Origin: Bordetella parapertussis
GTDB taxonomy: Bacteria > Pseudomonadota > Gammaproteobacteria > Burkholderiales > SG8-41
NCBI GenBank assembly: GCA_945893125.1
Contig: CAMDDY010000001.1
Span: forward strand, 1 to 45,307
Reading direction: 5' to 3'
DNA length: 45,307 bases
Part shown: positions 4,813-42,184 of the stretch, one piece after another
Position numbering within the stretch: position 1 is the stretch's first letter
How the letters are laid out: every line of letters starts with the position of its first letter
Translations under genes and position numbers: made by a program
The notes under the pieces: generated by a model
Databases searched by the model: none
Told to the model about the DNA's origin: nothing
What the model saw: the letters and a program-made list of their open reading frames with translations, nothing else

Positions 4813-6693
<1,881 letters not shown>

Positions 6694-9572: not shown

Positions 9573-10837
9573 AAGCGCAGCGTCTCCACCAGTTTTTTCG
9601 CCGCGCCGCGATGCGTTTGACTGAATTGCAGCGCGGCGTCGCCCATGCGTTTTATCAGCGCCGGATGCGTCAGCAACGCGGATGCTTTACGCGCAAGATC
9701 CGCCGCATCCATCACGCGCAGCGCGGCGCCTGCCGTGATTGCGTTCTCGGCGGCATCCGCAAAATTGTAGGTATGCGGCCCGACGAGCGCGGGCTTGCCC
9801 ACCGCGCTCGCTTCGATCAAATTCTGCCCGCCAAACGACAATAAGCTGCCGCCGATAAACGCCACGTCACACGCCGCGTAGTACGCAAACATCTCGCCCA
9901 TGCTGTCGCCCAGCAGCACTTGCGTGTCGGCGCGAATGGCCGCGCGAGTTTTTGTGTTTTCGCTGCGCCGCTGATAACGCACGCCCTGTTTGCCAAGCAA
10001 AGCGGCGACTTCATCAAAGCGTTGCGGATGGCGCGGCACCAGCACCAGCAGCAGGTTCGGCACGTCATGTAGCGCATGACATTGATGCTCGATCAACAAT
10101 TGTTCTTCGCCGTCGCGCGTGCTGGCTGCCAGCAGCACCAAACGTGCGCCCAGGCTCGCACGCAGCCGCGCGCCCTCCGAGAGCAGCGCCGGCGGCGGAT
10201 CGACATCGAATTTGAGATTGCCGAAAACCGAAATATTTTGTGCGCCCAGCGCGGTAAAGCGTTGTGCGTCTGCCGCAGTTTGCGCGGCAATCGCGGTGAG
10301 TTTGCCCAGCGTCGCGGAAATCAGCGTGCGCATGCGCAGATAATTGGCGAAGGATTTTTCGGACAATCGCGCATTCACCAAATGCAGGGGCACGCCGCGC
10401 GCCTTGCAGGCGTGAACCAGATTCGGCCAGATTTCCGTTTCCATCAACAGGCCGATGCGCGGACGAAAATGGTCGAGAAAGCGCCGCACTGCGCCGGGGT
10501 AATCGTAGGGTAAATAATGGCGCATGACATCATCGCCGAACAGGTCCTCACCCGCTTCGCGCCCGGTGGGCGTCATGTGCGTGATCAGGATGCGATGGCC
10601 GGGATATTGGTCGCGCAATGCGCGCACCAGCGGCTCGGTCGCGCGCGTTTCACCAACAGACACCGCGTGCAACCAGATCAGCGGCTGCGCGGACGTTTCG
10701 CCACGATACAAACCAAAGCGCTCGCCGATATGTTGTGCGTATTGCGGCTGACGGCGTGAACGCCACCACAACCGCAGCAACACATAGGGCAACGCCAGAT
10801 AGAGCAGTACGCTGTAAGCGAAACGCGGCATGTTCAT
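9569..10837 (-). CDS. waaA: 3-deoxy-D-manno-octulosonic acid (Kdo) transferase
   Basis: WLHAVSVGE motif and GT30 architecture. Start set at ATG 10837, which forms an ATGA overlap with the waaC stop; the track start at 10855 is a TTG. Confidence 0.9.
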   Translation of the reverse strand: MNMPRFAYSVLLYLALPYVLLRLWWRSRRQPQYAQHIGERFGLYRGETSAQPLIWLHAVSVGETRATEPLVRALRDQYPGHRILITHMTPTGREAGEDLFGDDVMRHYLPYDYPGAVRRFLDHFRPRIGLLMETEIWPNLVHACKARGVPLHLVNARLSEKSFANYLRMRTLISATLGKLTAIAAQTAADAQRFTALGAQNISVFGNLKFDVDPPPALLSEGARLRASLGARLVLLAASTRDGEEQLLIEHQCHALHDVPNLLLVLVPRHPQRFDEVAALLGKQGVRYQRRSENTKTRAAIRADTQVLLGDSMGEMFAYYAACDVAFIGGSLLSFGGQNLIEASAVGKPALVGPHTYNFADAAENAITAGAALRVMDAADLARKASALLTHPALIKRMGDAALQFSQTHRGAAKKLVETLRF

Positions 10838-11796
10838 GCGGTCACTGTTTTCCAAGCGTCGATCACATGCGCGACGGCGGGCGGCGCGCCTATGCCGCCA
10901 AGATTCATCGCATGCGGCGCGCGGTAAATACCCGTCGCGGTAGGATCTGTCGCGACGTAAATGCCGAGCGCCGGCGCACCCAGCGCTGCTGCGAGATGCG
11001 TGAGTCCGGTGTCCACGCCCACCACGCCTTGCGCGCCGGCAAGTAGCGCGGCAAGCTCGTCCAGTGTGAGCGCAGGTGGCGCCACGACGCCGCCTTTCGC
11101 ACCAGCCGCAAGCCTTTCGCTGCGCTCACGCTCGATTGCGCTTCCCCATGGCAGGATACAAAAAATATCATTTAAAAACAAATAATTACATAATTCAATC
11201 CAATGACTTTCCGGCCATAACTTGCGCTCAGCGCTGGTCGCGTGCAACAACACGGCGTAGCGCTTGCCAGGCAACCAGGAAAAATCGCGCGGCTGTGCCG
11301 AAATGCCGTAACCGGGTTCAGGCGACATGCCATAGCCCAGCGCCTGCGCCGCCAAACTGCGATTGCGCCTCACGGCATGTTGGCCCCACGGCACGCGGAA
11401 GGTACGGTCATACAGAAACCGCAACGGCTCGCGCGAACTACGCCAATCCAGCCCAAAACAATGGCCGCGTGCGGCTCGTGCCACCATCGCACTTTTCAGC
11501 AGGCCTTGGGTATCGATGATCGCGTCGTATTCGCGTTCGCGCAGCTTGCCAAGGGAAGCACAAATCTCTGCTCGCGTTTTCGCGCTCGACAAATCACGCC
11601 GCCAGCGGCGCAGCGCCACCGGTATCACGCCACGCACCGCCGGATGCATGCGCGGTATCGCGGCAAACGATTCTTCGACTACCCAATCGATCTCGGCGTT
11701 CGGTGCGTGCTGGCGGATATCGCCAACCACGGGAAGGTTGTGAACCACATCGCCCAGTGACGATGTTTTGACCAGAAGAATTCGCGGCATGTGCAT
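10834..11796 (-). CDS. waaC: LPS heptosyltransferase I
   Basis: 320 aa. N-terminal ILLVKTSSLGDVVH and C-terminal VGVDTGLTHLAAALG are typical of GT9 WaaC. Start could also be the ATG at 11790. Confidence 0.85.
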   Translation of the reverse strand: MHMPRILLVKTSSLGDVVHNLPVVGDIRQHAPNAEIDWVVEESFAAIPRMHPAVRGVIPVALRRWRRDLSSAKTRAEICASLGKLREREYDAIIDTQGLLKSAMVARAARGHCFGLDWRSSREPLRFLYDRTFRVPWGQHAVRRNRSLAAQALGYGMSPEPGYGISAQPRDFSWLPGKRYAVLLHATSAERKLWPESHWIELCNYLFLNDIFCILPWGSAIERERSERLAAGAKGGVVAPPALTLDELAALLAGAQGVVGVDTGLTHLAAALGAPALGIYVATDPTATGIYRAPHAMNLGGIGAPPAVAHVIDAWKTVTA

Positions 11797-11977: not shown

Positions 11978-13042
11978 TTGATACTCGTCACCGGCGGCGC
12001 AGGATTTATCGGCGCAAATTTTATACTCGACTGGCTTTCGACTGTCGGTACGCCCGTGCTCAATCTGGACAAGCTCACTTACGCGGGCAACCCCGGCAAT
12101 CTGGCAAGCCTTCGCGGTGACCCGCGCCACGTCTTCGTTAAAGGCGATATTAACGATCACGCGCTGGTTGCCGGTTTGTTGAAGCAACATCAACCCGGCG
12201 CCATCGTGCATTTTGCGGCCGAGAGCCATGTCGATCGCTCCATATACGGACCGGCGGAATTCGTGCAAACCAATATCACGGGCACCTTTAATCTGCTGGA
12301 GGAAGCCCGCACGTATTGGACCGCGCTTGCAGAACCCGCGAGACGCAATTTTCGATTTCTGCATGTCTCTACTGATGAGGTTTACGGCTCATTGGGCCCT
12401 GCCGATCCCGCCTTCAGCGAACACACTGCTTATGCACCCAACAGCCCTTACGCAGCTTCGAAAGCCGCCGCGGATCATTTGGTACGGGCTTATCACCATA
12501 CCTATGGCTTGCCGACGATAACAACCAATTGCTCTAACAATTATGGCCCTTTGCAGTTTCCTGAAAAACTGATTCCGCTGATGATACGTAACGCGTGCGA
12601 ACAAAAGCCGCTACCGGTTTATGGCGACGGCCGGCAAGTGCGCGACTGGCTCCATGTGACCGACCATTGCGCGGGCATTCGCGTCGCGTTGCATGAGGGG
12701 CGCACCGGCGAGACTTACAATATCGGCGGCAACAGTGAAAAGGCGAATATCGAGGTGGTGAACATCTTGTGTGCGATCCTGGATGAATTGCGGCCGGGCG
12801 GCGCGCCGCATGCAAAACTGATTGCCTATGTGAAAGACCGTCCGGGGCACGACCGGCGCTACGCCATCAACGCCTCCAAGATAAAGGATGAACTCGGGTG
12901 GGAGCCTGCCGAAAAATTCGAGGAGGGATTACGCAAAACCGTGATGTGGTATCTGGCCAACGAGGACTGGGTGCGCAACGTAAGCAGCGGCGCGTATCGC
13001 AACTGGGTCGAAACCAATTACACCCACCGAGGTACCGCATGA
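11978..13042 (+). CDS. rmlB: dTDP-glucose 4,6-dehydratase
   Basis: 354 aa starting [11 protein letters not shown], with [11 protein letters not shown] (YxxxK). TTG start has GGAG 7 nt upstream. Confidence 0.95.
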
Positions 13043-13917
13043 AAGGCATAGTTCTGGCGGGAGGCTCCGGTACGCGCCTCTATCCGGCCACGCAAGTGGT
13101 GTCCAAACAACTGCTGCCGGTGTACGACAAACCGATGGTGTATTACCCGCTGTCAACGCTGATGCTGGCGGGCATACGCGACATTCTCCTGATTTCCACG
13201 CCGCAAGACACGCCACGCTTTCAACAATTGCTCGGCGACGGCCACCAGTGGGGACTTGACATCACCTATGCGGTGCAACCGAGTCCTGATGGCTTGCCGC
13301 AGGCGTTTATCATCGGCGCCGATTTCATCGGCAACGGGCCCTGCACACTGATACTCGGCGACAATATTTTCTACGGCCATGATCTGACGCGCGACCTGAA
13401 GGCCGCGACCGCAAGAACAACGGGCGCCACCATTTTTGCCTATCAGGTGCAGGATCCCGAGCGCTCGGGCGTGGTTGAGTTCGACAAGCACGGCAAGGCC
13501 ATCTCGATCGAGGAAAAACCCAAACAACCGAAATCCCGCTATGCGGTTACCGGATTTTTTGTCTACGACAACAAGGTCGTCGACATCGCGCGCAGCTTGA
13601 AACCGTCCGCACGCGGCGAACTCGAAATCACCGACGTCAACAATGAATACCTGCGGCGCGGCGAGCTTTCCGTCACGCGGTTGGGCCGCGGCGTTGCCTG
13701 GCTTGATACCGGCACACATGAATCTCTGCTGGAAGCTTCGATGTTCATCGAAACCATTGAAAAACGACAAGGATTGAAAATCGCCTGCCCCGAAGAAATC
13801 GCCTATCGCATGGGCTACATAACGGCCAGCCGGCTTGAGGCCAATGCCGCCGCGATGGGCAACAGTCCCTACGGCAAATACCTGAGGGACGTGCTGAAGG
13901 AGCAACACCAGCAATGA
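13039..13917 (+). CDS. rmlA: glucose-1-phosphate thymidylyltransferase
   Basis: Trimmed to [16 protein letters not shown] at 13039. ATGA overlap with the rmlB stop. Confidence 0.95.
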
Positions 13918-14459
13918 ACGTCCTGCCGTCCAGCCTGCCTGATGTTTTGATCATCGAGCCCAAGGTGTATGGGGACGCGCGCGGCTTTTTTTTCGAAAGC
14001 TACAACGCACGCGACTTTGCCGAAAAAACCGGCATAACCGCTCAGTTCGTGCAGGATAACCACACGCGAAGCGCCAAAAACGTACTGCGCGGGTTGCATT
14101 ACCAGATCAATCAGCCGCAGGGTAAGCTGGTTCGCGTCACCGAAGGCGAAGTCTTTGATGTCGTGGTGGATGTGCGCAAAAACTCAGCGACTTTTGGACA
14201 GTGGGTATCAGTGACGCTATCTGCAGCCAACCGGCGGATGTTGTGGATCCCTCCGGGTTTCGCACATGGTTTTCTTGTCGTCAGCGACCACGCTGAATTT
14301 CTTTATAAAACAACAGATTACTGGGCGCCGGCGCATGAACGCTGTATTGCTTGGGATGACCCAACCTTGAATATCTCATGGCCGCTGCAAGGCATGCCGG
14401 TGCTGTCACCAAAAGATCAGGGCGGCACGCCCTTTCTCGCCGCCGAGGTTTTTCCGTGA
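13914..14459 (+). CDS. rmlC: dTDP-4-dehydrorhamnose 3,5-epimerase
   Basis: 181 aa. DARGFFFE and GLHYQ motifs. ATGA overlap with rmlA. Confidence 0.95.
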
Positions 14460-15370
14460 AGACCATTTTGTTGATCGGCAAGAACGGCCAAGTCGGCTGG
14501 GAATTAGAACGCGCGTTGCCTGCCGTCGGGAGCGTCATTGCACTTGATCGCGGGCAACTGGATCTGACACAGCCGGACGCCATTCGCAAGGTGATACGCG
14601 ACCTGTCGCCCGACATCATCGTCAATGCGGCGGGCTATACGGCGGTGGATAAGGCCGAAGTGGAAGCCGAACTTGCCATGCAGATAAACGCAACGGCGCC
14701 CGGCATCATGGCGGAGGAAGCCAAGCGTATCAACGCGCTACTCGTTCATTACTCGACCGACTATGTATTCGATGGCACGAGCGCGGCGCCGTATGTCGAA
14801 GACGACACGCCGAATCCGGTCAACGTGTACGGAAAATCGAAGCTCGAGGGAGAGCGCGCCATAGCTGCCGTGGGCTGCGCACATTTGATATTGCGTACTA
14901 GCTGGATTTACAGCCCCCGCAGCACTAATTTCGTCTTAACCATGCTCCGGCTCGCTAGGGAACGGAAGGAAATCGCTGTTGTTGACGATCAGATAGGTTC
15001 GCCCACCTCGGCACGAGAACTCGCGAAGACGACTACCGAATTGCTTGAAAAATTCAGGGGCGCTAACGAACATATCGGGGTATTTCACTTGTCGGCAAGC
15101 GGGTACACGTCGCGCTTTGACCTCGCGAAAGAAATCGTTAAAATCGCCGCAGGTTTCCCTGGCGAGTGGGCCGTGCATGCCACGGTTCGCGCGGCCACAA
15201 CCGAAAACTATCCGTTACCTGCGGCGCGGCCGCTTAATGCATCCACAAGCAAAGAAAAGATCAAACGAATTTTTGGCATTGAAATGCTGGCGTGGGAATA
15301 TCAGATTCAAACCAGCCTGAAGGAGCTGTTAGCAGTAAGCACATCGTTGCCAACTACACTCGCAAAATAG
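14456..15370 (+). CDS. rmlD: dTDP-4-dehydrorhamnose reductase
   Basis: Trimmed to the GTG at 14456 ([17 protein letters not shown]), giving a GTGA overlap with the rmlC stop. STDYVFDG and YGKSKLEGE motifs. Confidence 0.9.
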   Translation: MKTILLIGKNGQVGWELERALPAVGSVIALDRGQLDLTQPDAIRKVIRDLSPDIIVNAAGYTAVDKAEVEAELAMQINATAPGIMAEEAKRINALLVHYSTDYVFDGTSAAPYVEDDTPNPVNVYGKSKLEGERAIAAVGCAHLILRTSWIYSPRSTNFVLTMLRLARERKEIAVVDDQIGSPTSARELAKTTTELLEKFRGANEHIGVFHLSASGYTSRFDLAKEIVKIAAGFPGEWAVHATVRAATTENYPLPAARPLNASTSKEKIKRIFGIEMLAWEYQIQTSLKELLAVSTSLPTTLAK

Positions 15371-15609
15371 GGCATCCGTCACCAACTGCTGCAATCCGCC
15401 CGGCACATGGCTACGACAATAATGGCACGGTGCGCCGTTATTGTATATTGTGCCGGGGCGCAATTTCGTGTGGCACTGAGATGCCGGGGCACGATAAAAT
15501 CGTTTCCATTGCAACTTGTCTACTGTGAAGGCCAAAGGTCTACTTCAAATATGAATATTTGAGGCACATCGCTTCAAATTAAATGTTGGCTAATCGATCC
15601 GAGTAATAG

Positions 15610-17589
15610 ATGATGCTAAATCTTTGGCAAGCACAAGAAGCCGCCACACACGAGAGTAATCTTTCCCTTCGGGTATACTCCTCGCAGTTGCTGGGTCGCG
15701 ACCATACGCTTGTGCTACACGGGGGTGGCAACACTTCCGTCAAGGTCGTAGAAACAAATGCCGTTGGAGAATCCGAGAAGATTCTCTACGTAAAGGGGAG
15801 CGGGTGGGACTTGGAGACAATCCAGGAGCCAGGCTTCTCGCCGGTACGAATGGATCATTTGCTTAAGCTCGCGCTACTGGATTCCCTATCCGACCCTGAG
15901 ATGATGAATGAGCTTTCTACGCAGATGATCCGGGCCGGTGCACCGGCACCCTCAGTGGAAACCATTCTACACGCTATACTTCCTTACGCCTTCGTCGATC
16001 ATACACACGCGGATGCTTTACTTGCGATAGCCAACACAGCGGACGGGGAACAGCGGATTCATGAAATCTTCGGCAACGACGTAGTCGTGATCCCATATGT
16101 GATGCCTGGATTCGATCTTGCGCGGTTGAGCGCGCGACTGTTCCCGGCACAAGCGCACTCGGGAACGATCGGTATGGTATTGATGAACCATGGAATTTTT
16201 TCGTTTGGAAACACTGCGCGGGAGTCTTATGACCGCATGATCGCGTTGGTATCGCGCGCCGAAGATTACCTCGCGCGACACAGTGCCTGGAGGCTTCCAG
16301 TGCCCGTTGAGCAGCCTGTATCACATGCGTTGCGGCTGGAGATTGCAGAGTTGCGTCGCGAAGTCTCGTCATGCGCTGGTTTTCCAGTCGTTCTTGCCAC
16401 GCATGCCCAACCCGGATTTCTGGAATTCGCGCGGCGTGACGACGTAAGGCGTCTTTCACAGCAGGGGCCAGCAACGCCAGATCATTCCATCCGCACCAAA
16501 AGACTGCCAATGGTGGGGCGTGACGTACTGGCATACGCCGAAACCTATCGTACCTATTTCGAATGCAATGCGCCTGCCGCAAAGACGCCCAAAACCATGC
16601 TAGATCCGGCGCCACGAGTAATTCTCGATAAAGCGTTCGGATTGGGGTGCGTCGGACGCTCGGCGAAGGACGCAAAAATAGTACACGACATCTATGCCCA
16701 CACCATCGACATCATCCTGCGCGCGACTGCGCTCGGCGGCTGGCAGGCATTGCCCGAGAAGGATATCTTCGACGTCGAGTACTGGGATCTTGAACAGGCA
16801 AAGCTGAAGAAAGCCGGCACACCTCCGGTTTTTGCCGGCGAGGTGGCACTCATCACCGGCGCCGCGTCGGGCATCGGCAAAGCGTGCGCGGAATCCTTTC
16901 TCAAGCGGGGCGCGGCGGTAGTCGGGCTCGATATCAGCGCGGAAATCGACAATGTCTTTGCCGGCCGACCGGATTTCCTGGGACTCAAGTGCGACGTAAC
17001 GTCGGACGATGCTCTGGTTGCTGCGCTGGAGTCAGGCGTACGCGCATTCGGCGGCCTCGACATGCTGGTGCTCAATGCCGGAATCTTTCCGGGAGGCACA
17101 CGTATCGAGTCGTTGGCAAGCAATGAGTGGCGGCAGGTGATGCGAGTCAACCTCGATGCCAACCTCGCGCTGATGCGCGAATGCCTGCCGCTGCTCAAGC
17201 AGGCGCCGAACGGCGGGCGCGTCGTCATTGTCGGATCCAAGAATGTGCCCGCGCCGGGGCCAGGTGCGGCGGCGTACTCGGCATCGAAGGCTGCGCTGAC
17301 GCAGCTTGCCCGCGTTGCTGCGCTGGAATGGGGTGCCGAAAACATCCGCGTGAACACGATCCATCCCAATGCCGTGTTCGATACCGCCATCTGGTCGGAT
17401 GACGTACTCGCCGCGCGCGCCAAGCACTATGGCCTGTCGGTTGCGGAGTACAAAACCAATAATGTTCTCAGAACCGAAGTCAGAAGCCGCGACGTGGCTG
17501 AACTCGCTGCTGAGATGTGCGGCCCCCTGTTCGCCAAGACGACCGGCGCCCAAGTCCCAGTGGATGGAGGCAACGACCGCGTTATTTGA
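15610..17589 (+). CDS. bifunctional class II aldolase / short-chain dehydrogenase fusion (RhaEW/YuxG-type)
   Basis: 659 aa. N-terminal class II aldolase/adducin-like region has VLHGGGNTSVK and FVDHTHAD. C-terminal classical SDR has TGAASGIGKA and YSASKAAL. Confidence 0.85.
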   Translation: MMLNLWQAQEAATHESNLSLRVYSSQLLGRDHTLVLHGGGNTSVKVVETNAVGESEKILYVKGSGWDLETIQEPGFSPVRMDHLLKLALLDSLSDPEMMNELSTQMIRAGAPAPSVETILHAILPYAFVDHTHADALLAIANTADGEQRIHEIFGNDVVVIPYVMPGFDLARLSARLFPAQAHSGTIGMVLMNHGIFSFGNTARESYDRMIALVSRAEDYLARHSAWRLPVPVEQPVSHALRLEIAELRREVSSCAGFPVVLATHAQPGFLEFARRDDVRRLSQQGPATPDHSIRTKRLPMVGRDVLAYAETYRTYFECNAPAAKTPKTMLDPAPRVILDKAFGLGCVGRSAKDAKIVHDIYAHTIDIILRATALGGWQALPEKDIFDVEYWDLEQAKLKKAGTPPVFAGEVALITGAASGIGKACAESFLKRGAAVVGLDISAEIDNVFAGRPDFLGLKCDVTSDDALVAALESGVRAFGGLDMLVLNAGIFPGGTRIESLASNEWRQVMRVNLDANLALMRECLPLLKQAPNGGRVVIVGSKNVPAPGPGAAAYSASKAALTQLARVAALEWGAENIRVNTIHPNAVFDTAIWSDDVLAARAKHYGLSVAEYKTNNVLRTEVRSRDVAELAAEMCGPLFAKTTGAQVPVDGGNDRVI

Positions 17590-17712
17590 AACGGCGATGT
17601 TTTAATGAGTACTATGTAGCATGCGGTATGATTCGTTAACTATTTTATTTTAAATGACTAAATATCATATCTGAATCTCGGAGCAAGGCCGGAAAACAGG
17701 GAGAAATAGGGC

Positions 17713-18573
17713 ATGCTGGCGGTTATCGGCGGGAGCGGTGTTTATAACATCGAGGGGCTCGCCAACACGCGGTGGGTGAAAGTGAATTCGCCGTTCGGCA
17801 CACCGTCCGACGAACTGTTGCTCGGTGAACTGAATGGCCAGCCGATGGCTTTCCTGCCGCGGCACGGGCGCGGACATCGTATACCGCCGTCGGAAATCAA
17901 CTTTCGCGCCAACATCGACGCGCTGAAACGCGCGGGCGCCACGCAAATCGTTTCTGTGAGCGCCGTAGGTTCGCTGAAGGAGCATCTTGCGCCGGGCATG
18001 TTCGTGATCGTGGATCAGTTCATTGATCGGACATTTGCCCGCGCCAAATCCTTTTTCGGCAGCGGTTTGGTCGCCCATGTCTCAATGGCGCATCCGGTCT
18101 GCGCGCGCCTCGGCGATGCGGTCGGGCAAGCTGCGGTGGAAGCCGGCATCCCTCATACACGCGGCGGAACCTATCTGGTGATGGAAGGACCGCAGTTCTC
18201 CAGCCTCGCGGAGTCTACGCTCTACCGATCATGGAACTGCGACGTGATCGGCATGACCAATATGCCCGAGGCGAAGCTCGCTCGCGAAGCGGAGATGTGT
18301 TACGCAACCGTCGCCATGGTGACAGATTACGACTGCTGGCATCCTGATCACGATCACGTGACAGTGGAAATGATCATCGGCACCCTCCTCGCCAATGCCG
18401 AGAAAGCGCGCACGCTCGTCAAGCTGGCGGCCCCCATAGCGCGGCTGGCGGGCCTTTGTCCGCACGGCTGTCAAACATCCCTAGAGCACGCGCTGATCAC
18501 GGCCCCTGAAGCGAGAGATTCCGAAATGGTAAAGCGCCTAGACGCGGTGGCTGGACGCGTGCTGAAACGTTAA
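17713..18573 (+). CDS. mtnP: S-methyl-5'-thioadenosine phosphorylase
   Basis: 286 aa. AVIGGSG, FLPRHGRGH and MTNMPEAKLAREAE motifs are typical of MTAP. Confidence 0.9.
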   Translation: MLAVIGGSGVYNIEGLANTRWVKVNSPFGTPSDELLLGELNGQPMAFLPRHGRGHRIPPSEINFRANIDALKRAGATQIVSVSAVGSLKEHLAPGMFVIVDQFIDRTFARAKSFFGSGLVAHVSMAHPVCARLGDAVGQAAVEAGIPHTRGGTYLVMEGPQFSSLAESTLYRSWNCDVIGMTNMPEAKLAREAEMCYATVAMVTDYDCWHPDHDHVTVEMIIGTLLANAEKARTLVKLAAPIARLAGLCPHGCQTSLEHALITAPEARDSEMVKRLDAVAGRVLKR

Positions 18574-18597
18574 TCCGTAAACACGAGAGATATCGCC

Positions 18598-19125
18598 ATG
18601 ACGATCAAGTCACACATTCGCACGATTCCCCACTATCCCAAACACGGAATCATGTTCCGCGACATCACCACGCTACTTAAGGATCCAGTAGGTTTTCAAC
18701 TGACGATCAACGACCTCGTAAAGCGCTACAGTAGCGTCAAAATCGACAAGGTTGCCGGCATCGAGTCGCGCGGGTTCATCATCGGGGCAGCCTTGGCATA
18801 TGAATTGGGCAAGGGTTTTATTCCCATCCGCAAGAAGGGAAAACTGCCCGCAGAGACCATCGGTCACGATTATGAGCTCGAATACGGCTCGGACCGGGTC
18901 GAGATTCACATCGATGCCGTCAGCAAGGGAGAGAAAGTGCTGTTGGTGGACGACCTCATCGCTACCGGTGGAACGGCGGAAGCGGGCGCCGCGTTGATCG
19001 AGTCGGCGGGCGGCAGCGTCGTGGAATGCTGTTTTGTCATCGATCTTCCGGACATCGGCGGGCGCAAGCGATTGGAAGCGAAGGGCTACAAGGTTTTCGC
19101 CCTTTGCGAATTCGAGGGCGAATGA
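18598..19125 (+). CDS. apt: adenine phosphoribosyltransferase
   Basis: 175 aa. FRDITTLL and PRPP loop VLLVDDLIATGGTA. Confidence 0.95.
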   Translation: MTIKSHIRTIPHYPKHGIMFRDITTLLKDPVGFQLTINDLVKRYSSVKIDKVAGIESRGFIIGAALAYELGKGFIPIRKKGKLPAETIGHDYELEYGSDRVEIHIDAVSKGEKVLLVDDLIATGGTAEAGAALIESAGGSVVECCFVIDLPDIGGRKRLEAKGYKVFALCEFEGE

Positions 19126-20186
19126 CCGTGGCACATTATGTGCCGTCTTCGGGCGTCGAGACGCTGCGCTGGCGGGACAACCGCATCGAAATGATTGATC
19201 AGCGGGTACTGCCGGCGCGTTTCGATTATCTCGCCTATGATTCCGCACAAGGCGTGGCCGATGCCATACGCAGCATGGTCCTGCGCGGCGCCCCGGCCAT
19301 CGGTTGCGCGGCGGCCTATGGCGTCGCGTTGGAATCACGGCGTATCCGGGGTTTCCCGCCATCCGACTTCTTCGCGCAAATGAATCAGGCGTTTGACTTA
19401 CTGGGGAAAAGCTGCCCCACAGCCGTCAACCTGTTTTGGGCGCTGCGCCGGATGCGAGAGCTCCTGCAACAGATGATATCGCTTCCCGCAGAGCGCATTG
19501 CCGACCGTCTGATCGAGGAAGCGCATAACATTCTCGCCGAGGACGTGAAAATCAATCGAGAAATGGGACGGCATGGTTCGGCACTGCTCGCGGACGGAGC
19601 ACGGGTGCTTACGCATTGCAATGCGGGGGCGCTTGCCACTGCGGGTCACGGCACGGCGCTGGGCGTTATACGTTCCGCTATCGAGGCCGGCAAACACATC
19701 TCGGTCTTCGCCGACGAGACACGGCCTTTTTTGCAGGGCGCGCGTCTCACCGTGTGGGAACTCATGCAGGAACGCATTCCGGTGACACTGATCACAGACA
19801 ATATGGCGGGACATCTGATGAGCCATGGTGATGTGGACGCCGTCATTGTGAGTGCGGATCGCGTCGCAGCCAACGGTGATGTTGCGAACAAGATAGGAAC
19901 CTATATGGTGGCAGTACTCGCCAATCGGCACAGCATACCGTTTTATGTTGCCGCACCGCTTTCCACCATCGATTTGCAATTGCCCAGTGGGGTACACATA
20001 CCGATTGAAGAACGCACTTCAGACGAAGTACGCGGATTTGCAGACACTCAGTGGGCGCCATCGGAAGTATTGGTGCGCAATCCGGCTTTCGACATAACAC
20101 CTGCCGAACTCATTACAGCGCTAATCACGGAAAACGGCATCGTGACAACACCCAATCGCGAAAAAATTACCGCCCTGTTTGGATAA
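19122..20186 (+). CDS. mtnA: S-methyl-5-thioribose-1-phosphate isomerase
   Basis: Trimmed to ATG 19122 (MTVAHYVPSS...), giving an ATGA overlap with the apt stop. eIF-2B-like MtnA sequence: RGAPAIG, HCNAGALAT, GADRVAANGDVANKIGTY. Confidence 0.9.
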   Translation: MTVAHYVPSSGVETLRWRDNRIEMIDQRVLPARFDYLAYDSAQGVADAIRSMVLRGAPAIGCAAAYGVALESRRIRGFPPSDFFAQMNQAFDLLGKSCPTAVNLFWALRRMRELLQQMISLPAERIADRLIEEAHNILAEDVKINREMGRHGSALLADGARVLTHCNAGALATAGHGTALGVIRSAIEAGKHISVFADETRPFLQGARLTVWELMQERIPVTLITDNMAGHLMSHGDVDAVIVSADRVAANGDVANKIGTYMVAVLANRHSIPFYVAAPLSTIDLQLPSGVHIPIEERTSDEVRGFADTQWAPSEVLVRNPAFDITPAELITALITENGIVTTPNREKITALFG

Positions 20187-20286
20187 GCCTGCGAAGGGGA
20201 GTTCCATTTATACTTGCTATTTGGTTTCGGGATCATTGCCTTTTCGAAGATAGGCGTTCACCCCGCTTAATTTAATCATCGGGAAA

Positions 20287-21573
20287 TTGCTTTTGCCAAC
20301 AGTCGCTGTAATAGGCTTGGGTTACGTAGGGCTGCCGCTTGCAGTTGAATTCGGCAAACACTTTCACACCATTGGCTTCGATATTTCCGTTCAGCGTGTC
20401 GCTGATTGCACTAGCCGCATTGATCCCAATGGCGAAGTGACACGTGCTGATTTTGATGTCGCCGCCAAGCTGCGTGTGACGAACGATGCGCATGCGCTCG
20501 CACAGGCTGATTACATCATCATTGCCGTACCCACACCGGTAGATGCCGCACACCAGCCCGACTTCTCTGCTCTCTTGGCAGCCAGCCGCATTGCGGGCGA
20601 GCATATGAAAAAGGGTGCAGTCATCGTTTATGAATCGACCGTCTATCCCGGTGCTACCGAGGAAATTTGTATACCAGCCCTCGAGCAGCATTCGGGCATG
20701 AAATGGCAAACCGGCTTTCATGTCGGCTATTCACCGGAGCGCGTCAATCCGGGCGACAAAAATCACACGCTAACAAATATCATGAAGGTAGTCGCGGGAG
20801 ACAGTCCGGAGACTTTGCAGAAAGTCGCGCAGCTATACGGCACAGTGGTCAAAGCCGGGATTCATCGTGCAAGCAGCATCATAGTCGCGGAAGCGGCGAA
20901 GGTCATTGAGAACACACAGCGTGATCTCAATATCGCGTTGATGAATGAGCTGGCCATAATATTTAACAGGCTGGGCATCGATACGCTGGAGGTTCTGGAA
21001 GCAGCCGGCACGAAATGGAATTTTCTTCCGTTTCGGCCGGGGCTGGTCGGCGGGCACTGCATCGGAGTTGATCCATATTACCTGACCCACAAGGCAGAAA
21101 AGCTCGGCTATCACCCGGAAGTCATTCTCGCCGGGCGCCGGATCAACGACGCGATGGGACAGTTTGTCGCAGAGCAAACCGTGAAGCACATGGTCCGTGC
21201 CGGCCTGCAAGTCACGGGATCCAAAGTCAGCGTCCTGGGCGTGACGTTCAAGGAAAACTGCCCGGACCTGCGTAACACTAAAGTTATCGATATCGTGCGT
21301 GAGCTAGAGCGTTTCGGCATCCGTGTTCAGGTGCATGATCCGGTCGCATCACCCTCAGACGCGAATCGCGAATACGGAATTGACTTATTGCCGTGGGATG
21401 CGCTACCCAAGGCTCAGGCCCTGATCGTCGCTGTTGCTCACGACCAATTCCTGGCCAGACCCGTGCCTGATTACATTGAAAAACTGGAGGCGGGCGGATG
21501 TTTCGTCGACGTGAAATCGAAGTTCGATTGCAACGAGCTTAAGCGGCGCGGTCTTGCGGTCTGGCGTCTGTAG
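20287..21573 (+). CDS. wbpO: UDP-N-acetyl-D-galactosamine (hexosamine) 6-dehydrogenase, WbpO/TviB type
   Basis: 428 aa. Rossmann motif VIGLGYVGLPLA and catalytic-Cys motif GGHCIGVDP. TTG start, so the N-terminus is uncertain by 2 codons. Confidence 0.8.
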   Translation: MLLPTVAVIGLGYVGLPLAVEFGKHFHTIGFDISVQRVADCTSRIDPNGEVTRADFDVAAKLRVTNDAHALAQADYIIIAVPTPVDAAHQPDFSALLAASRIAGEHMKKGAVIVYESTVYPGATEEICIPALEQHSGMKWQTGFHVGYSPERVNPGDKNHTLTNIMKVVAGDSPETLQKVAQLYGTVVKAGIHRASSIIVAEAAKVIENTQRDLNIALMNELAIIFNRLGIDTLEVLEAAGTKWNFLPFRPGLVGGHCIGVDPYYLTHKAEKLGYHPEVILAGRRINDAMGQFVAEQTVKHMVRAGLQVTGSKVSVLGVTFKENCPDLRNTKVIDIVRELERFGIRVQVHDPVASPSDANREYGIDLLPWDALPKAQALIVAVAHDQFLARPVPDYIEKLEAGGCFVDVKSKFDCNELKRRGLAVWRL

Positions 21574-21586
21574 CTCGTATTGACCT

Positions 21587-22627
21587 ATGCCTGCTGCCAT
21601 CCGTGCGCTCAAGACCCGGCTGCTGAACGAGCGGTACGTCTGGCTGGTGACCGGCGTGGCGGGCTTCATCGGCTCCAATCTGCTCGAAGCGCTGCTCAAA
21701 CTGGATCAGGATGTCATTGGTCTGGATAATTTCGCCACGGGTTATCCGCACAATCTTGAAGAAGTGCGTGAGCAGGTGTCCTCGCAACAATGGCAGCGCT
21801 TCCGCTTCGTGGATGGAGATATTCGCAAGCTTGACGACTGCAGGCACGCAGTTGAGGGCGCGACCTATGTGCTCCATCAGGCTGCGGTCGGCAGCGTACC
21901 CAGGTCGGTCGTGGATCCAATCCTCAGTCACGAAGTCAACAGCGGCGGCTTTCTCAATATCCTCCTAGCGGCGCGCGATGCGAAAATAAAACGCATGGTG
22001 TATGCATCATCGAGCTCGGTCTATGGCGACGAGCCTGCGCTGCCCAAGGTTGAGGATAGAATCGGCGTGCCGCTTTCGCCATACGCCTTGAACAAGCGGA
22101 CGAATGAGGAATACGCCACGATATTTTCCAGGTGCTACGGCTTTCATGCGACGGGGCTGCGCTATTTCAACGTATTCGGGCCGCGCCAAGATCCCGATGG
22201 CGCGTACGCGGCGGTCATTCCAAAATGGATCTCCAGCATGCTCAAGGGCGAGCCGGTCTATATCAACGGCGATGGCGAAACCAGCCGCGATTTCTGCTTC
22301 GTGGCAAACGCGGTGCAGGCCAATTTGCTGGCGGCTACCGTGGAAGATCCCGCAGCCGTGGGCCAAGCCTACAATGTTGCCGTGCAGGAGCGCACGACCC
22401 TTAACCAGCTTTTTGCCCTGGTTCGATCCGAGCTCGCGCCACATTTCCCACGCGTTGCTCAGTTGCAGCCGCTACACCGTGAACTCAGGCAGGGCGATAT
22501 CCGGCATTCGCTGGCCGACATCAGCAAGGCGAAAAAGCTGCTCGGCTACGCCCCCACCGACGGTGTTGTCGAAGGCCTCAAAAAAGCGATGGACTGGTAT
22601 ATTGTCAACGCCGCAAAGCGCGCGTGA
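21587..22627 (+). CDS. wbpP: UDP-GlcNAc/UDP-GalNAc C4-epimerase, WbpP/TviC type
   Basis: 346 aa. From memory it is almost colinear with P. aeruginosa WbpP: [56 protein letters not shown]. Confidence 0.8.
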
Positions 22628-22648: not shown

Positions 22649-23119
22649 TCAGCTAAACCGGATTTGGTTCATGTGCAGCCAGATTGCGAATGAGTCATAG
22701 GGTGTGACGAGCGGCTGCGTAAGAATCTCGGCACCGGTGAACGCTTTGAATTCCGCACCCTCGTGCAGCACAAACCGTGAAAATTCCTGATCCGACACTG
22801 GCACCACAAAATAGATGCGGTAAACCTTTTCCTGTTTCTTCCCCAGCCAGCTGAAATCGAAATCGAAGCGCGTAAATTCCCGTGCCTCGGTAACTTCGAA
22901 TTCAAGTTCTTCATGTAACTCCCGATACAGCGCCTGCAACGGCGCTTCGCCAGCGTTGACTGCGCCGCCGAAGCAGCCCCAATGATCCGGATAAAAAATA
23001 TGCGGAATATCGTCGCGCAGCTGCATAACGTAGTGGCCGTCTGGCATGACCAACAACGCGGCTACCGCGTCGTCGCCACGCAACTTGCCGGGGGCAGCGA
23101 TAAAAGTCGGCAGTGTCAT
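22649..23119 (-). CDS. Nudix hydrolase
   Basis: 156 aa. Nudix box G-AVNAG-E-APLQALY-RE-L-H-EE-LEF. Last gene of the minus-strand block. Confidence 0.8.
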   Translation of the reverse strand: MTLPTFIAAPGKLRGDDAVAALLVMPDGHYVMQLRDDIPHIFYPDHWGCFGGAVNAGEAPLQALYRELHEELEFEVTEAREFTRFDFDFSWLGKKQEKVYRIYFVVPVSDQEFSRFVLHEGAEFKAFTGAEILTQPLVTPYDSFAIWLHMNQIRFS

Positions 23120-23185: not shown

Positions 23186-24106
23186 TCAGGCCAAGCCGAG
23201 CTTGGCTGAAATGGTCTTGAGATCAAGGCCGTGCGCCGCTTGCAATTCGGTATGGCTGCCATAGTTGTGAATAAACTCGTCCTGCAGAGCAAAGCTGTCG
23301 AGCTGGCATTTGGCACGGGTGTCCCACGCGATTTCTTTGATGCGCGGACCGAGGCCGCCATACGGGGCCATTTCCTCGATCACAATCACGCGTTTATGGC
23401 TGTGTAGCGCCTTGCTCACGCCCTCCACGTCCAACGGCTTTACCGTGTGCGCCGATACCAATGAAACGCTTTCCCCGCGTGCCTCGAATTTGGCGGCCAG
23501 ATCCGATCCGAGTTTGAGGATGGGGCCATAACCGATGATGCAGACATCGGCGCCGCGCTTGATATAACGCAACTTGCCGAATTCAAACGCGTCGATCGCC
23601 TTGGATGTGAGGTCTGGCTCGCCGGCTTTGCCCAAACGCAGATAAACCGGACCGCGTTCCTGTTTGATGCACCATAGCGTCGCCAAGCGCGCTTCGTGCG
23701 GATCGCACGGCGCGATCACTGCCATATTGGGGATCGCGCAGGCAACCGCCACATCCTCCTGCGCGTGATGCGTGCTGCCCAGCGTGGAATAGGTGATGCC
23801 GCCACCGATGCCGACAACTGTTACCGGCAGATTGTGGTAACAGAGATCGTCTCGCACAAACTCGAACGGGCGGAACAGCGTGAACGTCGCGATCGTGTAT
23901 GCAAACGGGCGCAGCCCGCGCAGCGCCATTCCAGCGCACAAACCGATCATAATCTGTTCGGCAACGCCGGTATTGATGAATCGGTCCGGAAACGTCTGCC
24001 GGAATTTGTCCATGGCGCCGGCGGGAGAAATGTCGGCAACCACCACGCACAGGCGCGGATCCTGCTGCCCTGCCTCGAAGAACGTATTGGCAAACATGTT
24101 TCTCAT
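23186..24106 (-). CDS. transketolase-family, C-terminal (pyrimidine-binding) subunit
   Basis: 306 aa. FINTGVAEQ, GSTHHAQEDVA and PVYLRLGK motifs are typical of split transketolase subunit B. Confidence 0.9.
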   Translation of the reverse strand: MRNMFANTFFEAGQQDPRLCVVVADISPAGAMDKFRQTFPDRFINTGVAEQIMIGLCAGMALRGLRPFAYTIATFTLFRPFEFVRDDLCYHNLPVTVVGIGGGITYSTLGSTHHAQEDVAVACAIPNMAVIAPCDPHEARLATLWCIKQERGPVYLRLGKAGEPDLTSKAIDAFEFGKLRYIKRGADVCIIGYGPILKLGSDLAAKFEARGESVSLVSAHTVKPLDVEGVSKALHSHKRVIVIEEMAPYGGLGPRIKEIAWDTRAKCQLDSFALQDEFIHNYGSHTELQAAHGLDLKTISAKLGLA

Positions 24107-24948
24107 GACGCCACCTCGGCCAACTCAGCCAACGCCTTCTGATACTCGTCTTTGTTCGGAGAACGATAGTGCCAGATCGGCACATGCTCCATGTACGACA
24201 CGCCCTTGCCTTTCACCGTTTTACCGACCACCATGAACGGTCGCTCGCCACTGCGTGTCGCCACCGCGCTGAATACTTCCGCTGCGTCGTGACCATTGAC
24301 CTCGACGGCTTCCCACCCGAAAGCCCGTGCCTTGTCCAACACGGGGTAAAAGTGCGGATGGGTTTCCGACGTGCGCCCCAGCCCCTGAAAATCATTCAGG
24401 TCGAGAAAAGCGACGAGATTATTCAGGCCGAGATTGGCGACCATCATCATTGCTTCCCACGTCGATCCTTCCTGCAGTTCGCCATCCGACAGCACTACAA
24501 AAACCTGCCGGTCGGTTTTTTTTATTTTTTCTGCATAGGCCATGCCCGCCGAGATCCCCATGCCATGGCCGAGCGAACCGGTGGATGCCTCGATCCCGGG
24601 CACCCCATAATCCGGGTGCGCACCAAGCTTGCCGAGCGGCGTGCAATACCGGTCAAGATCGTTCTTGGTGAGAATGCCAAAGTCCTCAAGAATCACGTAC
24701 TGCGAAAGGCAGCCGTGCCCCTTGGACATCACAAAACTGTCCTGCGTGCCGTTGCCCGAATGATCGCGGCGCATCAGCCCGTTGTAAATAACGTCGACCA
24801 TCTCCAGACAGGAAAACGCAGGCGCCACATGCAGCGCCGTCACCTGCTGCGAGATATCAAGGATGCGCCGCCGGTAGCGCAAGCAACGCTGGCGAGCGGC
24901 GACCGCATCAAAGTTCTCGCTACGCTGAACTCCCATGGTCCGCTGCAT
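24103..24948 (-). CDS. transketolase-family, N-terminal (ThDP-binding) subunit
   Basis: STGSLGHGMG and LSDGELQEGSTWEA (ThDP/Mg motif). Start set at ATG 24948, sharing 1 nt with the stop of the upstream SDR. ATGA overlap with subunit B. Alternative starts at 24978 and 24936. Confidence 0.85.
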   Translation of the reverse strand: MQRTMGVQRSENFDAVAARQRCLRYRRRILDISQQVTALHVAPAFSCLEMVDVIYNGLMRRDHSGNGTQDSFVMSKGHGCLSQYVILEDFGILTKNDLDRYCTPLGKLGAHPDYGVPGIEASTGSLGHGMGISAGMAYAEKIKKTDRQVFVVLSDGELQEGSTWEAMMMVANLGLNNLVAFLDLNDFQGLGRTSETHPHFYPVLDKARAFGWEAVEVNGHDAAEVFSAVATRSGERPFMVVGKTVKGKGVSYMEHVPIWHYRSPNKDEYQKALAELAEVAS

Positions 24949-25937
24949 TACGCGCGCAGCACGTAGTCCATCGGCCAATCACGTAACTGGTCGAGGTACT
25001 TGCGCGCCCAGGATGCCATTTCCTCCAAGCCATCTTCCCAGCCAATTTGCGGTTCCCAGCCAACGTCGCGCTTGATCGCACTCGAATCCAGCCAGTAACG
25101 CGAATCCTGACCGAGCCGGTCACCCGTCATCTCGCACAATTGATCGAATGGCATTTTCAGCGCCGCTGCGCACAGTTCCACCACGCGCTTAATCGAAGTC
25201 GGATCTTTGGGCCCCGCGTTGTAGACTGTCCCGAGCGGTGCTTTTTCATCAACCAGATGAATCGCACGTGCAAGATCCCGCGCGTGGATGTACGATTTTT
25301 CGGCACGGCCGCCGCCGTGCAAAGGCAGCCGCTTGCCAAGGAGTCCGCATACCAAGGTTTTCGGAATCACGCGGTGCAGCAACTGGCCCGGGCAGTAGGC
25401 GTTCGACGGTCGAATAATATTCATCGGGAATTTCAGGACCTTTGAAATCGACAACAAATGCATGTCGAATGCCGCTTTGGACGCCGCATATGGACTGGTG
25501 GGCTGCATCGGCGTATCTTCCTTCGCCGCAAAATCAACCGAGCCGTAAAGTTCGGAGGTCCCGATTTGAATAAAGCGCTCCATGTAGTCGCGCGACATCA
25601 ACTCTTCTGAAAACTTGGCAAGCGCCATTGAGTTTGTTTCGAAAAACCGCCAGGATTTTTTCCACGATACCGCACCTTCACCTTGCGCGGCATAATTGAT
25701 AATGACCTGCGGTTTCTCCTTGTCGAGCAACTCCATTACCGAGTCAAGTTCATGCGTAAGATGGAACGCATGGTACTGGTAATTTTTCCGCTTTTCGACA
25801 TTAAGCGAGAAAGGCTCTGGCCGCAACGGATTGCGGCCGACGCCAATGACCTTCTTGGGATCGGCATTGTCAAGCAGATACAGCGCGGTGTGGATCCCAA
25901 ACGATCCGCCAGCCCCGAAAATGGCGTAAGTTTTCAT
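24948..25937 (-). CDS. extended SDR, NDP-sugar 4,6-dehydratase-like
   Basis: 329 aa. Rossmann motif IFGAGGSFG, GTSELYG, and YAASKAAFD (YxxxK). Confidence 0.8.
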   Translation of the reverse strand: MKTYAIFGAGGSFGIHTALYLLDNADPKKVIGVGRNPLRPEPFSLNVEKRKNYQYHAFHLTHELDSVMELLDKEKPQVIINYAAQGEGAVSWKKSWRFFETNSMALAKFSEELMSRDYMERFIQIGTSELYGSVDFAAKEDTPMQPTSPYAASKAAFDMHLLSISKVLKFPMNIIRPSNAYCPGQLLHRVIPKTLVCGLLGKRLPLHGGGRAEKSYIHARDLARAIHLVDEKAPLGTVYNAGPKDPTSIKRVVELCAAALKMPFDQLCEMTGDRLGQDSRYWLDSSAIKRDVGWEPQIGWEDGLEEMASWARKYLDQLRDWPMDYVLRA

Positions 25938-25984: not shown

Positions 25985-26641
25985 TTATTCTAGTATCGTC
26001 CAGTACCAGTCGCCCGTGTAACCGGCTTCTTTAAATAGTTTGTTCCAACCATCCGGATAGTCGTGAAACTTGGCAGTCAACACCCACGACAAAAACAGCT
26101 CCCGCTGGGCTGGCGTTCGATACGAATCGACCTGAATGAAGCCACGGCCCGGCGCGAGACGCTCTACCTCTCGCACCGCACGTATTGCATCGTGACGCTC
26201 GAAGTTATGTATGGTATTGAGGGAGATCACTGCACTGAAGCTGTTGTCCGGAAATGGAAGTTTATCGCCACTGCCCAGATGCAGTCGCCCGACCACCTCC
26301 GGCTCGCAATGCATAAGCGCATATTCCGAGATATCCAGGCCGAATACTTCGAGTCCGGGACAGACTTTCAACAAATCCTTCACCAGGAACCCCTTGGCGC
26401 ATCCGACATCGAGCACGCGATCGCCGGGCTTGAGGCTGAAGTGCTTGATGATATCTTCGGCGATAGGTATCCAGCGTCCGTCGTAGCGATAACCGCCATA
26501 GCCGACCTCGCGCGGACCGTCGAAATACTGCTCTCCATATTGACGCGAAATTGCGATGTTCTCGGGTGTCTGCGCTTCCTTGCGCTTTTCAATATTGCGC
26601 TTGGACTTCGGCAACCGCGCCAGCAAATTGATTTCTGCCAT
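25985..26641 (-). CDS. class I SAM-dependent methyltransferase
   Basis: Trimmed to MAEINLL... at 26641, which shares 1 nt with the upstream stop. Motif I is RVLDVGCAKG. Confidence 0.8.
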   Translation of the reverse strand: MAEINLLARLPKSKRNIEKRKEAQTPENIAISRQYGEQYFDGPREVGYGGYRYDGRWIPIAEDIIKHFSLKPGDRVLDVGCAKGFLVKDLLKVCPGLEVFGLDISEYALMHCEPEVVGRLHLGSGDKLPFPDNSFSAVISLNTIHNFERHDAIRAVREVERLAPGRGFIQVDSYRTPAQRELFLSWVLTAKFHDYPDGWNKLFKEAGYTGDWYWTILE

Positions 26642-42180: not shown

Positions 42181-42184
42181 AACG

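Follow-up and report, generated by a model that had tools for sequence, protein, structure and literature searches.

Two described systems come closest to the gene cluster analysed here, in which a gene for an aldolase fused to a short-chain dehydrogenase/reductase (SDR) is followed by mtnP, apt and mtnA. The cluster lies in a 45,307-nt stretch of contig CAMDDY010000001.1, and this whole stretch is referred to as the window. The first system is the dihydroxyacetone phosphate (DHAP) shunt of Rhodospirillum rubrum, Rhodopseudomonas palustris and extraintestinal pathogenic Escherichia coli, which consists of MtnP or MtnN/MtnK, MtnA and the aldolase Ald2, and has an equivalent for 5-deoxyribose, DrdK/DrdI/DrdA, in Bacillus thuringiensis (PMC5893883, PMC10986504, PMC6079011). 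Clusters for the disposal of 5-deoxyribose are "far from ubiquitous" (PMC6079011), for cyanobacteria that lack Ald2 and have just mtnP and mtnA it is said that they "must employ another pathway" (PMC8102628), and the enzyme that handles 2-methylthioacetaldehyde in the shunt was still called unknown in 2026 (PMC13474568). The second system is RhaEW, which combines aldol cleavage and aldehyde oxidation dependent on nicotinamide adenine dinucleotide (NAD+) in one polypeptide; Bacillus subtilis YuxG and Chloroflexus aurantiacus Caur_2283 are L-rhamnulose-1-phosphate aldolases/L-lactaldehyde dehydrogenases of this kind (PMC3870299). RhaEW uses NAD+ to oxidize lactaldehyde, does not catalyse a reduction with NADH, and requires NAD+ for the aldol cleavage as well (PMC3870299). 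What appears to be new is the recruitment of a RhaEW-like fusion into mtnP/mtnA operons. No description of such an arrangement was found in the searchable literature, outside of which the primary DHAP-shunt papers lie, and searches on COG3347/PRK08324/TIGR02632 and on methylthioacetate found nothing relevant. We consider it reasonably probable, from sequence comparison, that fusion-mtnP-apt-mtnA is a compact operon for the disposal and salvage of S-methyl-5'-thioadenosine (MTA) and probably of 5'-deoxyadenosine (5'-dAdo), two toxic by-products of S-adenosylmethionine, and that it is a variant of the DHAP shunt.

The four genes form a co-directional quartet on the + strand at 15610-20186, according to the open reading frame (ORF) table and family scans. 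The genes and coordinates given in the original prediction were borne out by this table and by above-cutoff scores (Table 1). Identities were called from Pfam and NCBIfam/TIGRFAM profile scores against curated cutoffs, and these scores establish MtnP, Apt and MtnA at the equivalog level. The mtnA start was set at the ATG at 19122, where the family models begin aligning, while the mechanically called ORF opens at 19026. This ATG (19122-19124) overlaps the apt TGA (19123-19125) as ATGA (...ggcgaATGAccg...), so that the proposed overlap of the apt stop with the mtnA start can be read directly in the sequence. The spacer that precedes the fusion gene measures 239 nt, the one separating this gene from mtnP 123 nt, and the one from mtnP to apt 24 nt. 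It had also been claimed that mtnB, mtnC and mtnD do not follow. Within the 45-kb window this holds: Pfam scans of the remaining ORFs found no 5-methylthioribulose-1-phosphate (MTRu-1-P) dehydratase (MtnB), enolase-phosphatase (MtnC) or dioxygenase (MtnD), and tblastn with FucA, an MtnB, an MtnW-like RuBisCO-like protein and MtnX as queries gave no match there, leaving the window with no FucA-like gene.

Both the DHAP shunt and the window cluster a phosphorylase, MtnA and a class II aldolase. Entry in the window is via MtnP as in R. rubrum, not via nucleosidase and kinase, and the predicted products (adenine, DHAP and a C2 aldehyde) would be shared with the shunt. Unlike the shunt, the window has apt within the operon and a RhaE-type aldolase fused to an SDR. 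The Ald2/DrdA-type, FucA-like aldolase of about 220 aa (EC 4.1.2.62) is a component of the shunt that the cluster lacks.

The fusion is a full-length member of NF006196 (PRK08324.2-4), with aa 2-659 aligned to positions 1-657 of the 657-position model. NF006196 is an equivalog under a generic name only, "bifunctional aldolase/short-chain dehydrogenase"; the window protein is indistinguishable from this family, for which we propose a functional name. The fusion scored below the RhaEW cutoffs (TIGR02632, 430.1 bits against 567.75; NF006189, 417.3 against 634), whereas a rhizobial RhaD that is 33% identical to it reached 1193 and 1289 bits on the same models. These scores show that the window fusion belongs to a sister family of RhaEW that is distinct from it. 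A class II aldolase, a central domain and a C-terminal SDR are nevertheless joined in one polypeptide as in RhaEW, as seen in the full-length alignment to the PRK08324 model, and Pfam matches cover aa 29-220 (Aldolase_II, PF00596), aa 412-594 (adh_short) and aa 412-654 (PF00106/PF13561).

The aldolase domain carries the class II signature of a three-His site, a Glu and a phosphate-binding loop in the alignment. In the superfamily alignment, which includes the rhizobial RhaD, there is no variation at H131, H133, H194 and GGGNTS and almost none at E117. Profile alignment with hhalign puts H131/H133/H194 onto H141/H143/H212 of E. coli RhaD, which we take from RhaD structures to be the zinc ligands. 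In the same type of comparison, the domain matched E. coli RhaD with a probability of 73% (E 3e-5) and FucA with a probability of 0.5%. Residues 1-410 alone match only PRK08324-type fusion models, stand-alone MtnB and RhaD models reaching E of about 1e-3 to 0.03. The sole PDB sequence match of the aldolase domain was 3m4r (aa 13-222, E 5e-53, 44% identity), a structural-genomics entry from Thermoplasma acidophilum that is limited to the aldolase domain, carries no annotation of function and is thus uninformative on the substrate. DrdA (6btd), FucA and MtnB were not matched at E ≤ 10, in a PDB library where DrdA matched FucA at 7e-38 as a control. FucA and DrdA (6btd) served as stand-ins for Ald2 in these comparisons; a blastn comparison of mtnA from the window with E. 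coli genomes found nothing similar. By these profiles, the aldolase domain is of a distant RhaE type and not of the FucA-like Ald2/DrdA type, and its presence in an mtn module would represent a non-orthologous replacement rather than a fused Ald2.

The central domain is common to all PRK08324-type fusions and to stand-alone aldolases of about 410 aa. It occurs without the SDR in Paracoccus and Sinorhizobium proteins and has partly low predicted local distance difference test (pLDDT) values in the model of the window protein. In the SDR domain, T416-G423, N489-G491, S543, Y556 and K560 are invariant or nearly so among 48 homologues. An Asp at the end of beta-2 is a rule of thumb for NAD(H) over NADP(H) in SDRs, and D441 after beta-2 suggests a cofactor signature of the NAD(H) type. 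The alignments show that the catalytic motifs are intact in both fusion domains. An AlphaFold2 model built from a shallow alignment (72-86% identity; pLDDT 69.9, predicted template modelling score 0.53) was used for domain-level fold matching only. Foldseek matched its N-terminal domain to 3m4r (TMt 0.88) and its C-terminal domain to FabG-like, NAD-dependent SDRs, and this fold matching gave no full-length counterpart of the fusion among known structures.

The window fusion is thus like RhaEW in domain order, His metal ligands, SDR catalytic residues and NAD-type signature, and unlike it in its identity of about 33%, its separate clade, its mtnA/mtnP neighbours and the lack of rha genes nearby. 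By analogy, the RhaEW mechanistic template, in which the substrate is cleaved and the aldehyde is then converted, is likely common to both. On sequence grounds, the fusion is RhaEW-like in architecture and probable mechanism, yet it is neither a RhaEW orthologue nor an enzyme of the Ald2/DrdA type.

To place the fusion among its relatives, at least 575 stretches in species-representative genomes were confirmed by tblastn, and the best 80 loci, 65-75% identical to the window protein, were kept. Neighbours were counted by tblastn with the window proteins, neighbouring ORFs came from a caller filtered on G+C content at third codon positions (GC3), and the flanks of the window and the 80 loci total 1.17 Mb. 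The carriers come from Beta-, Gamma- and Zetaproteobacteria and from cyanobacteria, and the loci span Burkholderiales and other Betaproteobacteria, Gallionellaceae, Sideroxydans, Sulfuricaulis, Steroidobacteraceae, Zetaproteobacteria, "Muproteobacteria" and cyanobacteria. In 30 of the 57 loci whose downstream sequence reaches 1.5 kb or more, the fusion is immediately followed on its own strand by mtnA and/or mtnP (mtnA only, 20; mtnP-apt-mtnA, 6; mtnP-mtnA, 3; mtnP-apt, 1); the figure is 40 of 73 when 300 nt or more is accepted. The commonest neighbour of the fusion family is mtnA, with mtnP downstream in 10 of the 57 informative loci, and the order mtnP-apt-mtnA of the window recurs in L032, L038, L041, L067, L076 and L080. 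Estimates extrapolated from tblastn put the median spacer between fusion and mtn gene at about 49 nt and the number of overlapping or abutting junctions at 14. Clustering of all neighbouring ORFs revealed no other neighbour family in more than 10 loci.

Upstream contexts of the linked loci vary (tolB-pal-cpoB-queE, ygfZ/NRDE/GNAT, glgA/glgP, polysaccharide genes), and the junction between fusion and mtnA/mtnP is kept across at least six of them and across several proteobacterial classes. In a neighbor-joining tree, linked and unlinked loci are intermixed in one tight clade, which a long branch parts from the Shinella-type, NF006192-type and RhaD-type fusions. The NF006196 cutoff is also passed by L013, L032 and L059, of which L013 and L059 are members unlinked to mtnA/mtnP. 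Gene order in the 80 loci shows that the NF006196 family is operonically linked to mtnA and mtnP and that the linkage is conserved. A NUDIX gene neighbours the fusion in five unlinked loci; it was rejected as an orthologue of the window gene at 22649-23119, because only the Nudix box matches. The model cyanobacteria of Rapp et al. (PCC 6803, PCC 7120, ATCC 29413 and ATCC 29133) are not among the 120 matches listed.

A second tie to methionine salvage comes from a cyanobacterium. In Oscillatoria sp. SIO1A7 (L059, JAAHFN010000005.1, 7556-12813), genes for an MtnW-like RuBisCO-like protein, an MtnX-like phosphatase, the fusion and MtnB lie on one strand, and the MtnB is bona fide (TIGR03328, 189.7 bits; cutoff 137). 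No other of the 80 loci has mtnB or further canonical methionine-salvage genes beside the fusion. As judged from gene content, it is an independent tie of the fusion to this pathway.

In the DHAP-shunt variant that we favour, MtnP would phosphorolyse MTA or 5'-dAdo to adenine together with 5-methylthioribose-1-phosphate or 5-deoxyribose-1-phosphate. Apt would convert the adenine to adenosine monophosphate, and MtnA would isomerize the sugar phosphate to its ribulose-1-phosphate form. The metal-dependent aldolase domain would then cleave the ketose-1-phosphate to DHAP and 2-(methylthio)acetaldehyde or acetaldehyde, and the NAD(H)-type SDR domain would immediately convert the reactive aldehyde. 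By analogy with RhaEW, the likeliest outcome of the last step would be oxidation with NAD+ to 2-(methylthio)acetate or acetate, the alternative being reduction to the alcohol. In the published shunt the aldehyde is reduced to the alcohol, whereas RhaEW oxidizes its aldehyde to the acid with NAD+ (PMC3870299). We lean slightly towards oxidation, because of the RhaEW chemistry and the NAD-type signature in the window SDR. The aldolase substrate, the direction and cofactor of the SDR, and any coupling of the two domains are all inferred from sequence. As for the DHAP-shunt module of the original prediction, the part in which the fusion works with MtnP, Apt and MtnA gains from the 30 of 57 junctions kept and from the absence of rha genes; as regards the aldolase, the PDB search and hhalign point to a distant RhaE-type domain and not to one of the Ald2/DrdA type.

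A stronger form of this proposal is possible, although we hold it only tentatively. NF006196 may be a widespread one-polypeptide end of the DHAP shunt, in which a RhaE-derived aldolase now acts on D-erythro 5-deoxy- and 5-methylthio-pentulose-1-phosphates and is obligatorily coupled to an NAD+-dependent SDR that turns the toxic aldehyde into acetate or methylthioacetate, so that the route is oxidative and yields NADH.

The fusion might instead serve only the 5'-dAdo branch. It would then cleave 5-deoxyribulose-1-phosphate to DHAP and acetaldehyde, the latter going to acetate or ethanol, and would be an analogue of DrdA and not of Ald2, while MTRu-1-P would enter an MtnB route or be excreted. 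We regard this as rather unlikely. The arrangement in L059, where the fusion stands beside mtnB, the MtnW-like protein and the MtnX-like phosphatase, would imply two fates for MtnA products, acetaldehyde would be the simpler substrate for an SDR, and Bacillus species hold DrdA clusters beside full methionine-salvage clusters (PMC6079011). However, MtnP, MtnA, Ald2 and DrdA take both shunt substrates at similar efficiency (PMC13474568, PMC6079011), mtnB is nearby in only 1 of the 80 loci, and mtnB, mtnC and mtnD are absent from the window.

Another explanation, also improbable and a little more so in our estimate, is that the substrate of the fusion is a different ketose-1-phosphate or phosphosugar with no relation to SAM by-products, here maybe in polysaccharide or deoxysugar metabolism, and that its adjacency to mtn genes reflects inherited gene order or co-regulation. 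This would fit the stereochemistry of RhaE-type cleavage, which does not match the shunt substrates, and the many loci with no mtn neighbour (about 47%). It would also fit the polysaccharide genes: rmlB or rmlA abuts the fusion in L009, L011, L014 and the window, and the closest relatives (L001-L008) likewise lie at the edge of polysaccharide genes. The junction with mtnA/mtnP, in contrast, survives the varied upstream contexts and several classes, often overlapping or abutting. ORF clustering of the 80 loci showed no recurrent isomerase or kinase neighbour, nor a transporter, that could supply such a substrate, the mtn enzymes apart, and L059 ties the fusion to a different set of methionine-salvage genes.

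The contexts of sister subfamilies other than the RhaD type also speak for a different substrate. The sister fusions compared were those found on plasmids. RhaD-type fusions on rhizobial plasmids sit among rhaM, rhaI, rhaS/rhamnose ATP-binding cassette (ABC) transporter, kinase and DeoR regulator genes (e.g., L082), in agreement with the statement that RhaEW genes are always within rha loci (PMC3870299). The NF006192-type fusion has glycerol-3-phosphate dehydrogenases and a sugar ABC transporter as neighbours, and a Shinella-type full fusion (L084, 7053-9956) follows an lsrF-like gene, with an FGGY kinase and a transporter also there. An SDR-less relative of 413 aa, consisting of the aldolase and central domain (L085, 7947-9188, Paracoccus aminophilus pAMI4), ends an autoinducer-2 (AI-2) operon of lsrK, lsrA, two ABC permease genes and lsrB. 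A further branch of the superfamily may thus process compounds derived from phospho-AI-2. Similar SDR-less relatives were seen on the Sinorhizobium meliloti megaplasmid. As far as gene neighbourhoods indicate, the superfamily is functionally diverse, each subfamily having its own context, and that of NF006196 is mtnA/mtnP.

A rhamnose-catabolic role would be expected to show in the surroundings, and the original prediction had named rhaA, rhaB and rhaM neighbours as grounds for abandoning the shunt. No such gene was found in the 1.17 Mb around the 81 members: E. coli RhaA, RhaB, RhaM and RhaD as queries gave no match at E ≤ 1e-3, RhaI-type isomerases not being among the queries. Many metagenomic NF006196 members bear the Joint Genome Institute (JGI) name [quoted passage not shown], which is probably an over-annotation carried from COG3347, the presumed source of the label. 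Many carriers belong to lineages that we take to include cultured chemolitho- or photoautotrophs (Gallionellaceae, Sideroxydans, Zetaproteobacteria, Sulfuricaulis, Crocosphaera), for which a rhamnose-catabolic role is implausible. That the fusion is an ordinary RhaEW orthologue, as the JGI names imply and as the shared two-domain architecture, the 430 bits on TIGR02632, the 33% identity to rhizobial RhaD and the dTDP-rhamnose (rml) genes directly upstream in the window might suggest, is very improbable, given scores under the TIGR02632 and NF006189 cutoffs and over that of NF006196, the presumably autotrophic lineages among the carriers, and the biosynthetic, not catabolic, nature of rmlBACD.

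Several observations weigh against the DHAP-shunt variant itself. The functional assignment of NF006196 members is comparative throughout, and the aldolase domain is only remotely related to proven aldolases for MTRu-1-P and 5-deoxyribulose-1-phosphate. RhaE and RhaD cleave L-threo (3R,4S) ketose-1-phosphates, whereas these two compounds are D-erythro and belong to FucA-type territory. The expected substrate of the window fusion is accordingly D-erythro as against L-threo for RhaEW, which would demand another C4 specificity in the subfamily. About 47% of the informative loci lack mtn genes within 10 kb, most cyanobacterial members are monocistronic and lie in unrelated contexts, and the 80 loci are phylogenetically related, so that the counts do not represent independent events. 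L059 has a bona fide mtnB along with the fusion, which is therefore more than a mere substitute for the canonical route and need not replace it. Finally, sister subfamilies lie in quite different sugar contexts, and the substrate range in the superfamily is therefore labile and hard to predict.

We also searched the module for regulatory elements. A permissive Rfam scan of 15300-20400 was empty, the spacer at 17590-17712 giving no Rfam match at E ≤ 1, and a thiamine pyrophosphate (TPP) riboswitch upstream of thiC was the sole element in the whole window at the gathering threshold. Neither promoters nor terminators were predicted in 15200-20500 more often than in shuffled controls, so no claim about operon boundaries is made from those scans; a promoter-like site at 17586-17615 was weak and not above shuffled expectation. 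In seven linked loci, Rfam found only transfer RNA (tRNA) genes, a fluoride riboswitch elsewhere and one sX9-like match. The last lies in the fusion-mtnP spacer of L076 (6583-6658; 48.3 bits, gathering score 44), sX9 being a Xanthomonas small RNA, and the corresponding spacer of the window showed no sX9 match. In three linked loci, tRNA genes lie directly upstream of the fusion gene (L015, 9894-9966; L020, 9885-9957; L032, 7605-8727).

Table 1. Features of the fusion-mtnP-apt-mtnA module and of its surroundings in the window
Feature	Position	Strand	Basis or remark
Aldolase/SDR fusion gene, 659 aa	15610-17589	+	NF006196, 1071.4 bits (cutoff 831)
N-terminal class II aldolase domain, aa 1-225	15610-16284	+	GGGNTS aa 38-43, E117, putative metal ligands H131/H133/H194
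Central domain, aa 226-405	16285-16824	+	Covered by NF006196 and sister models; no Pfam domain
C-terminal classical SDR domain, aa 406-659	16825-17589	+	TGAASGIG 416-423, D441, NAG 489-491, S543/Y556/K560
Spacer between fusion gene and mtnP, 123 nt	17590-17712	+	AT-rich; from the sequence
mtnP, S-methyl-5'-thioadenosine phosphorylase, 286 aa	17713-18573	+	NF006492, 501.7 (cutoff 437); TIGR01694, 298.7 (cutoff 274.85)
apt, adenine phosphoribosyltransferase, 175 aa	18598-19125	+	NF002634, 279.4 (cutoff 170); TIGR01090, 228.2 (cutoff 185.85)
mtnA, S-methyl-5-thioribose-1-phosphate isomerase, 354 aa	19122-20186	+	TIGR00512, 444.8 (cutoff 279); NF004326, 463.3 (cutoff 271)
waaA-like 3-deoxy-D-manno-octulosonic acid (Kdo) transferase	9569-10855	-	
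GT9 heptosyltransferase	10834-11796	-	
rmlBACD	11978-15370		Upstream of the fusion gene
UDP-sugar dehydrogenase	20287-21573		Downstream; WbpO name from Pfam domain content only
Epimerase	21587-22627		Downstream; WbpP name from Pfam domain content only
Methyltransferases, three	25985-26728, 38536-39543, 41023-42276	-	In polysaccharide cluster
Radical SAM/SPASM protein, one	39865-40923	-	In polysaccharide cluster

The module is flanked as the original prediction described, by rmlBACD before it, wbpOP-like genes after it (so named by Pfam content only), and three methyltransferases and one radical S-adenosylmethionine (SAM) protein farther on. The further idea that its position in a lipopolysaccharide (LPS) locus beside a "SAM-hungry" block is functional was not supported, as the module occurs elsewhere in many unrelated contexts, with tolB-pal-queE, ygfZ, glycogen genes, hemE, GGDEF genes, urease genes and others as neighbours. 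Methyltransferases release S-adenosylhomocysteine and not MTA or 5'-dAdo, and therefore only the single radical SAM enzyme of the block would feed the module. This is a small load next to housekeeping enzymes such as ThiC, which is itself encoded in the window. In the closest relatives (L001-L008), fusion-mtnA lies at the edge of polysaccharide genes, a placement common to some related lineages. In three loci free of mtn genes, rmlB/rmlA that are 67-69% identical to those of the window lie beside the fusion (L009, 12025-13068; L014, 5196-5828; L011, 9247-10110). They are oriented differently from the window genes, and a functional link was not found; the adjacency may be a lineage-specific remnant of gene order. 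The position of the module inside the LPS locus is most likely incidental.

Other features of the window were noted. The TPP riboswitch (RF00059, 6735-6834, - strand; 69.6 bits, gathering score 54.3) immediately precedes thiC (4813-6684, - strand). ThiC, which is of the radical-SAM type, is a further 5'-dAdo producer in the window, and its inhibition by SAM metabolites is reported in a paper cited in PMC6079011. ORFs of the minus-strand cluster at 23186-24978, 29773-31329, 33350-34105, 34126-34677 and 36433-37020 encode a transketolase split into separate N- and C-terminal halves, a protein resembling transaldolase/FSA, an HldE-like kinase/cytidylyltransferase, a HAD phosphatase of the GmhB kind and a GmhA-like protein with a SIS domain. 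Taken as a set, all of these look like a self-contained pathway for a heptose or higher-sugar nucleotide in the O-antigen locus. Three ORFs on the minus strand have coding-like GC3 and no Pfam match at E ≤ 1e-3 (37177-38376, 399 aa; 42185-43675, 496 aa; 4274-4723, 149 aa). Those of 399 and 496 aa, in the polysaccharide cluster, might be a polymerase, a ligase or a novel transferase.

Cells that use radical SAM enzymes or produce polyamines or acyl-homoserine lactones must clear 5'-dAdo and MTA, both of which inhibit the enzymes that release them. Assigning NF006196 to this task would name a family with at least 575 close relatives in species-level genomes and metagenomic proteins in the thousands. 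Many of these now bear the probably wrong label "rhamnose utilization protein RhaD", and the assignment would give them a testable activity. The evidence is comparative and the surprise moderate, gene fusion and paralogue recruitment being common themes; we see here a functional prediction for a large family that is well supported and open to direct testing, and no conceptual surprise. If true, the DHAP-shunt variant would exemplify non-orthologous displacement in which the aldolase switched its stereospecificity, and might define an oxidative version of the shunt. Should the one-polypeptide oxidative form also be true, it would explain the disposal of MTA and 5'-dAdo in hundreds of species of Proteobacteria and cyanobacteria where mtnP and mtnA occur and Ald2, DrdA and MtnB are lacking, and would identify the long-missing enzyme that handles the aldehyde.

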